Shown piece after piece: positions 1-64,000 of a stretch of 64,000 bases of DNA. How positions within the stretch are numbered: position 1 is the stretch's first letter; each line of letters begins with the position of its first letter. Under the pieces are notes generated by a model, which worked only from the letters and a program-made list of their open reading frames with translations, ran no database searches and was not told where the DNA came from. The DNA is from a virus: IMG/VR virus record IMGVR_UViG_3300045988_174813. The stretch is one strand, 5' to 3'. A program made the position numbers and the translations under genes.

Positions 1-89
1 AAATGTTTTATACCAGTGGTAAGCGCGAAGAAGCCTATAAGACTCTCAAGACTAAACTCATAAAAGAAATAAAGGAGAAGAATAACTAA
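1..89 (+). CDS. C-terminal end of an upstream CDS (partial, function unknown)
   Basis: Frame open from window edge to TAA 87-89; stop overlaps next start (TAATG). Confidence 0.3.
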   Translation, partial: MFYTSGKREEAYKTLKTKLIKEIKEKNN

Positions 90-325
90 TGGAAGATGGT
101 TGGATAGATGTAAACTATTCCTTCTCTACTGTAGGCTATGCGCGTGATACATTACTTGCGCGATTACGGCAGATGGTTGTGAATTATGAACGGTTGGAAC
201 TTGTGGATAGAAGTCATTGGAGTGATTGGCGCGAGACAATTCTTTTGCGCGGGTCTATTCGTGATGGAGAATATGGCGAGTTTCAGAAGTTTATGGAAGA
301 AATGATGCGTGAGTATGATGTGTGA
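89..325 (+). CDS. hypothetical small protein (78 aa)
   Basis: Intact ORF, AAGGAG upstream, TGA stop, no TAG codons. Confidence 0.6.
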   Translation: MEDGWIDVNYSFSTVGYARDTLLARLRQMVVNYERLELVDRSHWSDWRETILLRGSIRDGEYGEFQKFMEEMMREYDV

Positions 326-328
326 AAT

Positions 329-357
329 TTGAATTTTTGAAAAATTTAGTGTATAAT
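329..357 (+). promoter_or_regulatory. sigmaA-type promoter TTGAAT-17-TATAAT (TG-extended)
   Basis: Hexamers at 329-334 and 352-357, AAATTT upstream. Leader GTAAGGTTGAG shared with the promoter at 21863. No convincing ORF before 648. Confidence 0.7.
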
Positions 358-647
358 ATATATGTAAGGTTGAGAGAGAAATAATTTCTTGAAACTTTAT
401 ACGCACATATCGGGGCGGAGTATGCGACGACACGTGCAACGAAGCAAATAAACTCGGCAGTGCCTGTATATGTTGCAACCGTTGGAGGACGAGATAAACC
501 TCCGGTAATTTGTAGTTTTCCATTCCTCAAGAGAAAGCTTCCGGAAATACGAGAAGGGAATGTATGGCGCGCGCGAACCAGCATTCAAAATCCCCACGAA
601 GAGGGCATTTGTGGATTGGGTGTTTTGCCACAAGATGCACTAAAATT

Positions 648-676
648 TTGACTTTCTGGAAATTTTAGTGTATAAT
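648..676 (+). promoter_or_regulatory. sigmaA-type promoter TTGACT-17-TATAAT driving tRNA-Leu(TAA)
   Basis: Consensus hexamers. Part of a 47-bp stretch identical to 2546-2592. Confidence 0.8.
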
Positions 677-59800: not shown

Positions 59801-60924
59801 ATAGTTTCATTGACCTCACTAATGATATTGCAGATGTGTTCCAAGAGCTTGATGAAAAATAGCTTGAAGACCGTCAAGAGTTTTATGAGAAGCTTGAAGA
59901 ACAAGACCAACGCTATCTTGAAAGTGTGCGTAATAACATTGAGGAAGAACGTAAGGCGCGCGAACGTGCAAATAGTTTTGAAGACCTTCAAAAGAAGCAA
60001 AATCGCTTAGCCCTGCTCCAGCGTGATAGTTCTGGTCGTTATGTAAATGATATTGCAGAACTTCAAGAAGAAATAAATTCCGACCAGCAAGATTTAGCTG
60101 ATTAGAATGTGGATAATATTCTTGACACTCTTGAAAAGCAAATGGATAAAGATGCTGAGCGCCATCAAGATATTCTTGATGCAATGTAGAAGCAAATTGA
60201 CAGTAATGTTGAAAATCGTATATACATTGAGCGCGCAGAGCAAACCATTGCGCAAGGCGAATAGGCTATTCTCGATGCCATTCATATGGGTGAGGATTGG
60301 CGTAATGCTTCTAACGCCGAACGTGAAAAGATGGATGAAGAGTAGGCTACAAATATTGCTGGGTCAAAGAACTATCTTGAAAAGTTGAATGAAGGTATTA
60401 CTTCGTCTAGTGAGTATATATCTAAGATGGTTACAGATGCGCTTACTAAATAGACCGAAAGTCTTATTTGGACTATTGGTGATATTCCTCAAAATGATGA
60501 AGCCCATGTGGCACACGCAATGGAGACGACACTGCCTTCAATTCTTGAATAGTTCTTCGCGCGGACCAATACGGCCCAAGACATGGCAGATGACAATAAA
60601 GTTAGTGGTGCTAGATACGCTACAGGTGGTCTTGTAGACTACACTGGCCCCGCTTGGGTTGATGGCACTCCTGGTAAACCAGAAGCATTCCTCAATGCCA
60701 ATCAAACTGCTATGATTGCTTCATTTACTGCTAATCTTGCAAAAATGATTTCTGGTAAATTCCCCTCTTCTAACGTAGAAGCAGGAAGTAATTGTGAAAT
60801 CAATATTGATATTGGTTCAATTGGCGCGGACTATGATATTGACCAAGCTATCAATAAAGTCAAACAAGAAATTGTAAATAGCGCGCAGTTCCGTAATGTA
60901 ACATTACTCAATCGCAGACGCTAA
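53866..60924 (+). CDS. tail tape measure protein (2352 aa), 65 TAG sense codons
   Basis: I read every codon except two stretches covered by the ORF track. There are 65 in-frame TAG and no TAA/TGA. The 55561-55908 segment matches the TP901-type TMP core (LKMARISNIDYAAATDYATAAVKGFGL). All 8 track ORFs in this range share one frame. Confidence 0.8.
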
Positions 60925-60943
60925 ACACAAGGGAGGAAATAAA

Positions 60944-62017
60944 ATGAGAAATATTTACTAGAAAGACGACTATACAGGCTTTGTATATAATGGCATACAT
61001 TCCTCTCAATTTGGCCTGTTTAGCGTCGCTAATGGGGACAGATACTCACGAGGTCTGTCCCCGACCTTTCAAGACCTGACACAATCTGTGCCAGGTCAGG
61101 ATGGAACACACTACTTTGGAACACAAATGACGCAACGAGTTATTACATTATAGGTTGCTTTTGATAGTGTAACGGAGACAGAGTTTCATTAGTTAAAGCG
61201 CTGGTTGAATTGTGGCATCAAGCCACTCATTCTTGACGAGACGCCTTATATTCAATACTATGCAAAAATTCAAACCGCGCCAACCATATAGTTCGTGCCT
61301 TTTGAAGAAGATGTAGATGAACGGATATATAAGGGAGAAAGTACAATTACTTTTGTATGTTATGACCCATATGGATATTCTGTTTCTAAATGGCTAAGTT
61401 CTTATGGCGTATATGGTGAAACTGGACTCTAGCCAGTGAGTTTATATAGTGAAAATGTGCGTGAATGGGCATTAGCAAGTAGATTACAACCGCGCCAGTC
61501 TACAAAGCAATATACTATTGATACTTATCAAGAAGATAATGAGCTTAGTGCGAATGCATATAACGGGCTAATTACAATATATAATGCAGGAGATTTACCT
61601 GTAGATTATATATTGAATTTTACATTGTCTGATGCGGTAACTACTAGTCAAGAAATCAAAATCACACTGACTCATAACGACGTGACCATTGTTGAAAATG
61701 CTATTGACTTTTCAGTTGCTTCAAATTTACTCAAAAAGGCAATGAAGAATGTTGATACTAATGCCATAATGGTAGGCATCAATTTTTCACTAGACACAAA
61801 GAAAAGATTACTTTTTGCCTCGCGCATATATACAGTTACAACCAATGGTGAAGTAGAATAGAAAGTTTCAGATAGAGTTATTGCGAACCATGCTTTGCGC
61901 GGAGACTTTTCAAAAATCCCGCTTTCAGAAAATAAAGATGATATGTCTTATATGTAGTTGAGTTGTGACAAGCCTATTAGCAAAGTAAGTATTGATTATC
62001 TATATAAATACTACTAA
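60944..62017 (+). CDS. distal tail protein (Dit-like), 7 TAG
   Basis: GGGAGG RBS; N-terminal FVYNGIHSSQFGLFS..VPGQDGTHYFG pattern of siphophage tail family proteins; follows the TMP. Confidence 0.55.
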
Positions 62018-62028
62018 GGAGGTGCCAA

Positions 62029-64000
62029 ATGGCATATACATATTATATACAAACTGGCATACAAACATATGATAGCACTACTGGCACCTGGGTTATCATT
62101 GATGGAGAAAAAATTACTGCATCTACAACTAAATCAATATTATATTATAGCCTTGATGAAGATACAAATGAGATTTTAGGTAATGTTACAAATATTACAA
62201 CTGAGTAGGCGAAAAGTAACCGAGTACCTAGAGTGCGGTATAACATAAATGTTGATAAAGTGCTTGGAAAGCTTACTGAAGCAGAACCTTATTTGACAGT
62301 TTATGTTGATTATCTTCAACAATTCATTATAGATTACTATTATAAAAATGAGGAAGGCGCGCTAGTAAAAGACCAAGAATCTGGCATAAAGTATGTTGAC
62401 TAGGGATATACAATTCGAAATACTTCGCGCCTAAAGGAAGAAACTTACTCTATATATACCAACATGAATGGAACCCAAACATTCCAAAAGAAATACTACT
62501 ATCGCCCGATTGCAAAATGGATCTCGCAAACTGAAGATGATAGTACTATTTACAATGCTGGTGACCTTTATAATGGTAATGCCAATTTATCACTTGTGCT
62601 TGATAATACAAGTTCTTATGTATTGCAAGGAAATTATATTGATGACATTCCGAATCCCAGTCGTGAACCGGATAAAGTTGCAAATGCAATTCTGGTAAAA
62701 CTTTATCCCCAAGGTGGCGACTTAAGTTCAACGAGTGATTTAAAGTATATTGATGGCTATAAATCTTATCACTTTTTAGGATGGACAGACACACTAGGTG
62801 GTATAGTTTTACCTGATGGATATTAGTTAGGTAAACTACCCAATGATGGAGATAGTCTTATTTTATATCCAGTTTGGCAAGAAAGTCCATGCTAGAGGGC
62901 CTTACTCTCGGCGCAAAGTGATTTATCAAAGCCATCTGCTCCGACTCGCGCGGGCTATCGCTTTTAGATATGGTCCGCGCGCTCACAAGAAGAAAACTTG
63001 CCAATACTTCAAGACAATACAACAGGAGTAGAAAATCCAGAGCCAATTCCTATCTTTGCTCTATGGCAGAGCGAACTAGAGTATGCCAATGAATATGAGC
63101 AGACTATTCGTAAAGTACCCTATAAAATTGAAATATGGGAAGACCAATTCAATGAAGAAAACAATAGATGGGAAGAAATACGTTTGGTAACTCTTGGCGC
63201 GGACACCATGGAGGATTAGGGACGCGCCTTCAATATCAAGTTCAAATAGACCGTATATGGTGAGTTGACGCTTACTTTCTCCCTCTATGGAACATATATT
63301 GATAATCAAACAGGTCAGCGCGTAGAAAACTATCTTATGCCATATTGCTTCAATGAAGCCAAAGTAAAACTTTGGTATGATGGAGAGTGGTATGATTTTA
63401 TTATAAAAGATATTCAAGAAACTCATAATCAATAGTTTACTAAAACATACACTTGCTAGTATTTACCTATTTATGAACTAAGTAAGATTGGATATACTCA
63501 AGTATTTAGCTTAGATAACCGTGATGGGAGCGGTATTCAAAGCGCGCCTGAATTTATGGAAAGTATTCTTGAAGATACTGAATGGCGTTATGTGTAGGCA
63601 GGAAGTGATAAAGTTCCTACTGTGGCAGACTTGGAAGTAAATCTAACTGAAACAAGTGAAGAAGTAGTTTATTCTACTGATGTAAAAGACGTAGAAAATG
63701 GACGTATCAATTATGAAACCTACTCTATTGATGAAAATGGTATTTTACATCCTGGCATCAGTGGTACTATATCTAGTGGTAAGGTGTATATTCCATATAG
63801 TTAGCTAAATAAAGAAGGAAAGATTTTTGGTTGCTTTTCTGAGGGTCTTATTGAAGTTGATGGTGACCTAATTCTACAGCAAAGTTTGGTTACTTTCACA
63901 ATGGACTGGGCACTATATCCTCTAACAGATTTTACTATTACAAAATTCACTGCGGAAGTCCCTAAAAAGAGTAATGTTAGTGAGTGGATTGAAGCATCTA
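62029..64000 (+). CDS. tail-associated (Tal-like) protein with N-terminal Flg_new-type repeats, partial at window end, 11 TAG
   Basis: AAGGAGG RBS. HFLGWTD..LILYPVWQ and GYRF(TAG)IW repeats, then a prophage-tail-endopeptidase-like block (KIEIWEDQF..YDFIIKDIQE). Confidence 0.5.

Follow-up and report, generated by a model that had tools for sequence, protein, structure and literature searches.

Strand-symmetric excess of alternating G/C words in an SPβ-like, TAG-recoded gut phage and most sampled members of its family

What is known of genome-wide short-word biases in phages is mostly avoidance driven by restriction, along with a small number of oriented signals, Chi among them. This study deals with a bias towards GCGCG and CGCGC in a 64-kb stretch of DNA (positions 1 to 64,000 of the IMG/VR virus record IMGVR_UViG_3300045988_174813, 39.9% G+C; hereafter the window), which is part of the ~122.6-kb genome of an SPβ-like, TAG-recoded gut phage. 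The two pentamers belong to a palindromic word family of the restriction-modification (R-M) type that is increased 8-31x, in a strand-blind manner, in an abundant uncultured family of gut phages, and no description of GCGCG, CGCGCG or alternating-GC enrichment in phages was found in the searchable literature.

In the Chi-using phages LLS and MD8, 20 of the 23 and all of the 32 sites, respectively, lie in one orientation, and they are clustered near one end (PMC12315714). The window resembles these phages in the over-representation of a short G+C-rich word, in the many interchangeable copies and in the host-dependent identity of the word; however, Chi is oriented and end-clustered, whereas here both orientations are equal, several words are enriched and GCGCGTG is not. 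With the restriction-site avoidance of phages, which is itself active in the window genome, the bias shares short palindromes and lineage specificity, but its sign is the opposite, as GCGC and CGCG are enriched 3-4x and GCGCGC 13x. In Escherichia coli, very short patch (VSP) repair skews oligonucleotide frequencies, and the effect is modest, with depleted T-containing precursors. This Vsr/Dcm skew offers a parallel as a strand-symmetric, genome-wide bias of a methylation-site-like word produced through biased fixation, but the excess here is 8-31x, without depletion of the precursors, and neither a methyltransferase nor a Vsr gene was found in the sequences scanned. The oligonucleotide signatures of phages often mirror those of their hosts, and such mimicry is likewise a diffuse whole-genome composition common to relatives; the magnitude here is far larger, however, and the polymorphism is off mutational equilibrium. 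DNA uptake sequences and FtsK-orienting polar sequences (KOPS) also occur as hundreds of copies of a short word, with weak selection per copy as may apply here, but these are 8-12 nt long, strand-polar and served by a known machine, whereas the words of the window have 4-6 nt and are strand-blind.

Size and DNA-level nature of the excess

A sequence-only reading of the window had claimed that GCGCG and CGCGC are strongly over-represented throughout, and the genome-wide excess is borne out. The window holds 185 GCGCG and 141 CGCGC, namely 326 pentamer matches lying in 225 maximal alternating runs (150 of 5 nt, 54 of 6, 17 of 7, three of 8 and one of 9), where composition, in an order-0 Markov model, predicts 21.9 and 17.3, or ~39 together (excess 8.3x). 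The excess is 5.4x over an order-1 model (33.7 and 26.6 expected) and 1.8x over an order-2 model (98.5 and 79.5 expected), and 100 dinucleotide-preserving shuffles made with an independent tool contained 60.3±9.5 matches, with a maximum of 79. The local counts of that reading, 13 loci in 12,001-15,000 and four in the open reading frame (ORF) at 89-325, were exact. Every 4-kb bin is enriched, from 2.6x (52-56 kb) to 20.7x (24-28 kb), and the noncoding stretch of 1.4 kb in the latter bin has GC-rich CGCGCG islands amid AT-rich iterons.

GCGCG and CGCGC are the top two over-represented pentamers of the window, as GCGC (3.9x) and CGCG (3.3x) are among the tetramers and GCG and CGC (1.8x) among the trimers, and the hexamers GCGCGC and CGCGCG reach 13x over composition, yet fall to 0.63-0.73x of what an order-4 model predicts. 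Of the dinucleotides, GC shows the largest excess (1.27), and GT (0.81) and AC (0.83) the strongest depletion. Among the all-G/C pentamers, which as a class are ~1.9x over-represented (0.71x in SPβ), the ratio of observed to expected counts climbs with the number of alternations between G and C: it is 8.1x with four alternations, 3.8, 2.9, 1.7 and 1.1 for the pentamers with three, 2.5 to 0.6 with two, and 1.0 to 0.1 with one. This ranking by alternation is presumably, according to nearest-neighbour parameters, also the order of duplex stability.

The bias acts on DNA and not on protein. Within called genes, the 241 matches observed compare with 100±11 in synonymous-codon shuffles within genes (z=13) and with 72±10 in codon-order shuffles (z=17). 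All three codon phases exceed their null (68, 71 and 102 matches observed against 39, 25 and 36 expected), and the enrichment is strongest in the two phases that hold two wobble positions. Moreover, the matches are denser in noncoding DNA (6.1/kb) than in coding DNA (4.9/kb), despite the lower G+C content of the former (37%). The synonymous and codon-order shuffles, the excess in all phases and the denser noncoding DNA rule out codon or dipeptide bias as the cause, as the sequence-only reading had held for dipeptides from the occurrence of the motif in every phase.

The two orientations of the word are used alike. The GCGCG:CGCGC ratio follows the G:C ratio in each transcription block and window half (p=0.55-1.0; pairs of observed-to-expected ratios 9.2 and 8.3, 10.3 and 9.1, 6.3 and 6.6), so that no orientation bias appears at any scale. 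Site spacing in the window showed neither regularity, its coefficient of variation being 1.09 (1-42 kb) against 0.99±0.07 under random placement, nor the 10.5-bp helical period, and a check for periodicity proposed earlier accordingly came out negative. No 7-mer or 8-mer dominates the window beyond coding-strand purine effects (for example, GCGCGAAG with 18+4 copies). The flanks carry at most 0.17 bit, A being rare just before the word (0.11 at -1) and T just after it (0.10 at +5), so the consensus (T/G)GCGCG(A/G) suggested before holds only in part, as a weak signal. As strand polarity is lacking and spacing is random, polar signals (Chi, primase, packaging), which the sequence-only reading had listed among the possible functions, are disfavoured.

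Spread across the family and turnover of the words

An excess of 5 to 30 times composition is common to most sampled members of the phage family (related loci are labelled L001 and so on, and 37 of them were anchored on the Pol IIIα gene). It amounts to 7.4-7.8x in the two closest relatives, L001 and L002 (capsid 96-97% identical, DNA 87-95%), and to 2-4x, together with GCGCC, in a group with 63% capsid identity; more distant groups have GCGCG at ~1x or 0, but GCCGC/GCGGC at 6-12x. Most of the 37 Pol IIIα loci enrich CGCGC 6-31x, GCCGC 3-10x and GCGCC 4-11x. The extremes of the family are L057 and L058 (IMGVR_UViG_3300028805_000075 and 3300031994_003577), with CGCGC at 31x in DNA of 32% G+C and GCGCGCGC at 844x, and L057 even carries (GC)4 runs. 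In these two phages, 12 of the 71 loci are runs of 8 nt, but only one run extends to 9 nt, a sharp fall that suggests an upper length limit.

The preferred alternating word changes between lineages. Lineages in which GCGC stands at 0.0 (L019-21, L071 and L075) enrich GCCGC, CGGCC, CCGCC, GCGGA or CCGCG, and in L031-33, strains covering the start of the window, GCCGC is at 0.1-0.3 and CGCGC at ~8.3x. In relatives, GCSGC (S, G or C) also stays in excess over codon-preserving shuffles, whichever the phase (170 against 55±5, 112 against 19±4 and 73 against 18±3.5). The family-leading words CGCGC, GCGCC and GCCGC are exactly those all-G/C pentamers that have two GpC steps. A constant density of sites across lineages was considered and rejected, since density scales with G+C content and lineage.

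The excess was absent from the control replicons: CGCGC stands at 0.16 in SPβ (top pentamer 2.9x), at 0.29 in a Ruminococcus albus plasmid (top pentamer 2.7x) and at 0 in a Clostridioides difficile phage, and 30 kb of the uracil-DNA phage AR9 contain 0 GCGCG. The top pentamer does not exceed 3.7x in the control phages and plasmid, against 8-31x in the family. Unrelated-looking jumbo phages with a similar endolysin have CGCGC at 5-7.6x, and L083, whose avoidance profile is window-like, reaches 11.9x.

The enrichment stands beside a marked avoidance of other short palindromes, a contrast that the sequence-only reading had drawn correctly: GATC is at 0.12, TTAA at 0.20, GTAC at 0.34, CATG at 0.35 and CTAG at 0.37. 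CCCGG (0.1), GCWGC (W, A or T; 0.4), GGCCC (0.4), CGGCC (0.6) and both GGCC and CCGG (0.5) are also depleted in the window. This avoidance profile points to a distinct set of host restriction systems. The avoidance of TTAA is particular to the window lineage, most relatives being near 1.0.

Individual sites are weakly conserved and turn over at a high rate. The window and L001 have 36 sites in common, of 53 and 72, respectively; when four taxa were aligned, all of them shared 20 of 59 motif positions, against 48 of 238 positions of the other all-G/C pentamers. Between strains that are 97-98% identical, nearly all differences within runs are single C-to-T or G-to-A transitions. The direction of change was read from 15 sequences that are 95-99.9% identical to the window over 23.4 kb, compared by BLAST projection onto a reference and polarised by outgroups at 89-93% identity. 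Among silent derived mutations, namely synonymous or noncoding ones, 19 destroy and five create an alternating pentamer (binomial p=0.007), a ratio that differs (Fisher p=0.011) from the silent background of 257 GC>AT and 234 AT>GC. The loss per motif G/C site is 8.05%, against 7.95% in the background, so the runs are neither hypermutable nor protected, and a "breathing" model in which clustered cytosines would be shielded from deamination was rejected on this equality of the per-site C-to-T rate. The gain per precursor site is 7.25%, against 3.55% in the background (a difference that is not significant), and equilibrium needs ~27%. With loss at the ordinary rate and gain rare, the words are not at mutational equilibrium; either they are retained by biased fixation (through selection or biased conversion), or the window lineage is decaying. 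Over all mutation classes, destroying and creating mutations stand at 18:2 among singletons and at 7:6 among variants found in at least two strains; compared with other GC>AT changes, those that destroy the word are over-represented among singletons (odds ratio 2.6, p=0.039). The trait persists across lineages whose Pol IIIα is 42-83% identical to the collecting query, which argues for maintenance. In the Pol IIIα of L057, runs coincide with conserved Ala/Arg residues, but also with variable sites at which Ala or Arg is confined to run-rich lineages; the latter indicate a pressure strong enough to alter proteins.

Maintenance of the bias and rival explanations

As a tentative explanation, which we consider quite possible though short of probable, we propose weak selection (or biased conversion) for a strand-blind property of the duplex, filtered by lineage-specific restriction avoidance. 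The bias itself is no site or element but works at the level of DNA: in most sampled members of a family of SPβ-like, TAG-recoded phages of gut and rumen, G and C are packed, alike on both strands, into short clusters where they alternate. Point mutation breaks the words at the normal rate and seldom makes them, so that biased fixation, through weak selection or biased gene conversion, would have to keep them up over many interchangeable copies; maintenance may be closer to codon-usage selection than to binding-site selection. The winning word of each lineage would be set by the G+C words that this lineage must avoid, presumably through host restriction. The favoured property could be a short word to which a symmetric DNA enzyme binds or which it modifies, or else the added local stability of stacked GpC/CpG steps. 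The stronger version, that the family actively maintains a dense, strand-blind lattice of GCGCG, GCSGC and GGCGC by weak selection over hundreds of interchangeable copies, as a new genome-wide DNA signal whose word co-evolves with host restriction, appears doubtful to us; if true, such a lattice may, for example, mark the phage's own DNA, form a pattern of modified sites or act as a "GC clamp" against defence systems.

Several results weigh against the proposed explanation. The signal is a graded preference for G/C alternation, with no sharply bounded 5-mer; the pentamers named by the sequence-only reading are the top ones, but "5-mer motif" is too narrow a term for a family-wide alternating-G/C preference whose word varies by lineage. 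At the maximal Markov order (order 3; 154 and 125 expected), the excess is only 1.13-1.20x, small because the sub-words are themselves enriched stepwise, from GCG/CGC to GCGC/CGCG; the Markov-corrected check suggested by that reading therefore gives a large excess over composition, dinucleotides and codons and a slight one at this order. No reader protein, methyltransferase or repair gene was found in the sequences scanned, with ~48 kb of the window-phage genome lying outside them. The selection signal rests on 33 motif-affecting events; in the silent class alone, the skew of the frequency spectrum has p=0.24. The other all-G/C pentamers also show a net loss (47:24; p=0.37 against the alternating words). 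Conservation in the outgroups is 80% against 48-61% for controls in one region, and 74-88% against 73-88% in another, while in the late region, compared with L001 and L002, the window lineage has 13 losses and four gains. The pattern could thus be in part a decaying relic, and a signature imposed by the host is conceivable. Selection, which had been proposed from the enrichment itself, keeps tentative support from the 19:5 erosion at an ordinary rate and from the persistence across the family, tempered by the few events and the silent spectrum.

A phage or host cytosine methyltransferase acting on GC-core sites (GCGC, CGCG, GCSGC), in the manner of the multispecific enzymes of SPβ-group phages, whose modified sites would protect the DNA or would lead to VSP-like T:G to C:G repair in co-infection heteroduplexes, is in our judgement an unlikely source of the words. 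The enriched cores GCGC, CGCG, GCSGC, GGCGCC and GCGCGC are indeed R-M-type (quasi)palindromes, symmetry and word switching would suit a fast-evolving methyltransferase specificity, GC is raised and GT and AC are lowered among the dinucleotides, strain differences within runs are almost all C-to-T or G-to-A, and in SPβ the methyltransferase gene mtbP lies ~3 kb from the polymerase gene. However, the C5-methyltransferase motif PCQxFS occurs neither in the window, nor in the 9.9 kb upstream, nor in ~80 related loci, a scan that included ±10 kb of Pol IIIα in 37 relatives, and the only methyltransferase-like protein does not reach the Pfam thresholds and is closer to enzymes acting on small molecules or tRNA than to DNA-specific ones. 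A VSP-type footprint was rejected as well, as the transition neighbours GTGC and GCAC stand at 0.98 and are not depleted, and the motif cytosines are not hypermutable, which argues against 5-methylcytosine. SPβ, whose enzyme M.SPβI methylates GGCC and GCNGC, shows no excess of these targets (GGCC 0.77, GCCGC 0.81). Rather unlikely, too, is a neutral signature, in which a mutation or repair bias that depends on sequence context, whether of the host or of the phage replisome, would create alternating G/C and hold the phage at mutational equilibrium: this would agree with the diffuse and symmetric nature of the bias, which disregards codon phase and peaks in noncoding DNA, and with the enrichment in L083 and in the jumbo phages, but the silent 19:5 ratio runs against the word while the background is balanced and the loss rate equals it, and the gain of 7% is far from the ~27% that equilibrium demands. 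Moreover, phages of human gut and other metagenomes show the effect although their avoidance profiles are very different, which suggests different hosts, and the R. albus plasmid, a replicon of a candidate-type host, lacks the bias.

Recognition of GCGCG by the AddAB or RecBCD of the host (GCGG-type words in other hosts), whereby dense Chi-like copies would shield linear or rolling-circle DNA, is in our estimate quite improbable. Firmicute Chi sequences are short, G+C-rich and GCG-centred (AGCGG in Bacillus subtilis, GCGCGTG in Lactococcus lactis), some phages without recombination modules accumulate Chi (PMC3784561, PMC12315714), and many weakly selected, interchangeable copies with host-dependent word switching would fit, but orientation here tracks the G/C skew in all blocks, the L. 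lactis word is rare (6+4 copies) with T the least frequent base after GCGCG, and AGCG is only 0.97x in the window. Several different words are enriched together with palindromic hexamers among the top ones, and SPβ does not enrich the B. subtilis Chi (0.61). It is more improbable still that the words are a mere by-product of restriction avoidance, in which GG/CC-step or A/T words would be forbidden and G+C pushed into "safe" alternating words. The depletion of GG/CC-step words (CCCGG, GGCCC and CGGCC) and the reciprocal lineages, with GCSGC up where GCGC is 0 and CGCGC up where GCCGC is low in L031-33, speak for it; against it, there is little mass to redistribute, as the words that are not avoided reach 1-2.5x while CGCGC reaches 8x (31x in L057), the all-G/C pentamers as a class are themselves in excess where those of SPβ are not, and codon shuffles yield only 100 of the 241 matches in genes. 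Avoidance clearly shapes the choice of word and cannot produce an excess of 8-31x. Least credible of all is a structural role in the stems of RNA or DNA hairpins (terminators, regulatory elements) or in Z-DNA tracts, which the four strong hairpins of Table 1 and the (GC)4 runs of L057 might evoke. Motif-centred 45-nt windows fold at -15 kcal/mol or below in only 10.7% of cases, against 7.4% for other all-G/C pentamers and 4% for shuffles, and the mean folding energies are -9.2 and -8.9 kcal/mol for motif-centred and other all-G/C pentamer windows, at most ~10-15% of the loci lie within hairpins, and no excess of closely paired copies or short spacings was found in the window. With only one tRNA-borne locus and weak flanks besides, a repeated structural element (terminator, REP-like or tRNA) was rejected. 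Z-DNA, which needs ~8-12 bp or more, was rejected because 67% of the runs have 5 nt and only four reach at least 8 nt. About three-quarters of the matches, furthermore, lie inside genes, on either strand relative to transcription.

If selection maintains the words, as in the explanation we favour, they would point to an unrecognised DNA-level requirement (a modification, defence evasion or a physical property of DNA) that acts at hundreds of sites and is strong enough to change proteins. The word profile, with G+C words either at zero or enriched, is a sharp marker of lineage and host range, while k-mer methods of host prediction and binning would be misled by the bias in this phage family. 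The window alone contains 51 BssHII sites.

The phage and other features of the window

The same genome has been assembled recurrently from human gut metagenomes; scaffold_150 of the ENA contig set ERZ28573108 matches the window at 100% identity across 10.3 kb, and ERZ27229728 does so at 99.99% across 21 kb. Long ORFs emerge only with read-through of TAG, and the gene for the tape-measure protein of 2,352 residues contains 65 in-frame TAGs. TAG is decoded as a sense codon, probably for Gln, of whose codons it makes up 30% in late and 10% in early genes; it also occurs inside some early genes. The structural genes match the SPβ families YonB, YonD, YonG, YomU and YomW, and the capsid protein shares 34% identity with its counterpart in phAss-1, a TAG-recoded gut phage with a predicted host within Clostridia (PMC10607447). 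The coordinates of these and further features are collected in Table 1.

Table 1. Features of the window (positions 1 to 64,000) and, where a locus is named, of related loci
Feature	Position	Strand	Remark
Alternating-G/C runs of at least 5 nt, n=225	1..64000	both	~1 per 284 bp
Peak local enrichment, 20.7x	24001..28000		holds the 1.4-kb noncoding stretch between divergent gene blocks
Lowest local enrichment, 2.6-3.4x	52001..60000		still above expectation; tail-tube and tape-measure genes
Small ORF with four GCGCG (140, 158, 229, 247)	89..325	+	anchor for the strain sample
Terminator-like G+C hairpin, stem GGGCGCGG/CCGCGCCC	38126..38146		example of the minority class
Terminator-like hairpin GCGGCGCGGGA/TCCCGCGCCGC	38427..38453		-26.7 kcal/mol
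Hairpin CGCGCGG-TCT-CCGCGCG	33884..33901		intergenic spacer, minus-strand block
Strong intergenic hairpin with motif	26108..26150
Gene block	1-25.6 kb	+
Gene block	27-39.3 kb	-
Gene block	39.6-64 kb	+
Suppressor tRNA	2598..2673		anticodon CUA; TAG-recoding span
Further TAG-recoding spans	39627..64000; 9705..11405
tRNA-like genes with irregular anticodon loops	4779..4855; 8649..8730		two of 15 tRNA-like genes in the window; ARAGORN: 'tata', 'cc'
Homing endonuclease genes (GIY-YIG, HNH/NUMOD)	796..1503; L031 13039..13791; L096 3602..4354		tRNA region
Methyltransferase-like protein	3625..4398
Iteron fields, AT-rich	26013..26629; 27704..27990		between divergent gene blocks
Gene flanked by iterons	27072..27557	-	weak PHROG matches: DnaD-like, replication-initiator families
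19-bp palindrome, 22 copies	28390..37331		0.02 copies expected
Hairpin (GAT)GGC-TCGC-GCC(ATC)	30516..30534; 34207..34225; 35229..35247		just downstream of 19-bp palindromes
G10 run and repeat arrays	39330..39532		(GCCCTT)x4.7 at 39348..39375; perfect (CAAACCTAAAATTC)x5.9 at 39450..39532
Deoxyribosyltransferase/permease gene pair	L033 4178..6120; L043 9274..11221		in L033, ~4-6 kb upstream of window start
Spo0A C-terminal-domain protein of relatives	L097 1..266; L099 5281..5598

The Spo0A-domain protein of relatives suggests spore-forming Firmicute hosts. In searches for the host, the only match of the capsid protein among genome contigs was a phage contig binned in a "Staphylococcaceae" metagenome-assembled genome, all closest homologues of the endolysin and the permease were phage-encoded, and the permease had matches of at most 35% identity in PLSDB, with no bacterial homologue above that value.

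A nucleoside 2-deoxyribosyltransferase gene adjoins a gene for a permease of the uracil/xanthine family, and the pair, which is kept across the family beside NrdD, dUTPase and Pol IIIα, may be a module of base salvage or base modification; in some strains, the permease is an NMN-transporter. A link of the word bias to uracil-DNA, an idea taken from this module, was dropped in view of the AR9 count given above. The homing endonuclease genes of the tRNA region are variably present among near-identical strains.

The iteron region between the divergent gene blocks is probably a replication origin; its units are of a 12-/13-bp TAAATGTAAT type, with ~7 or more copies, and of 22 bp, with five copies. 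The 19-bp palindrome, CTAACCTAT-N-TTAGGTTAG, occurs in intergenic spacers at about one copy per small gene of the minus-strand block and may act as an operator, a promoter or a terminator for that block. On the minus-strand transcript, the loop of the small hairpins beside it reads GCGA, a GNRA tetraloop. The G10 run and the two repeat arrays that follow it lie directly upstream of the first late gene (39,627).

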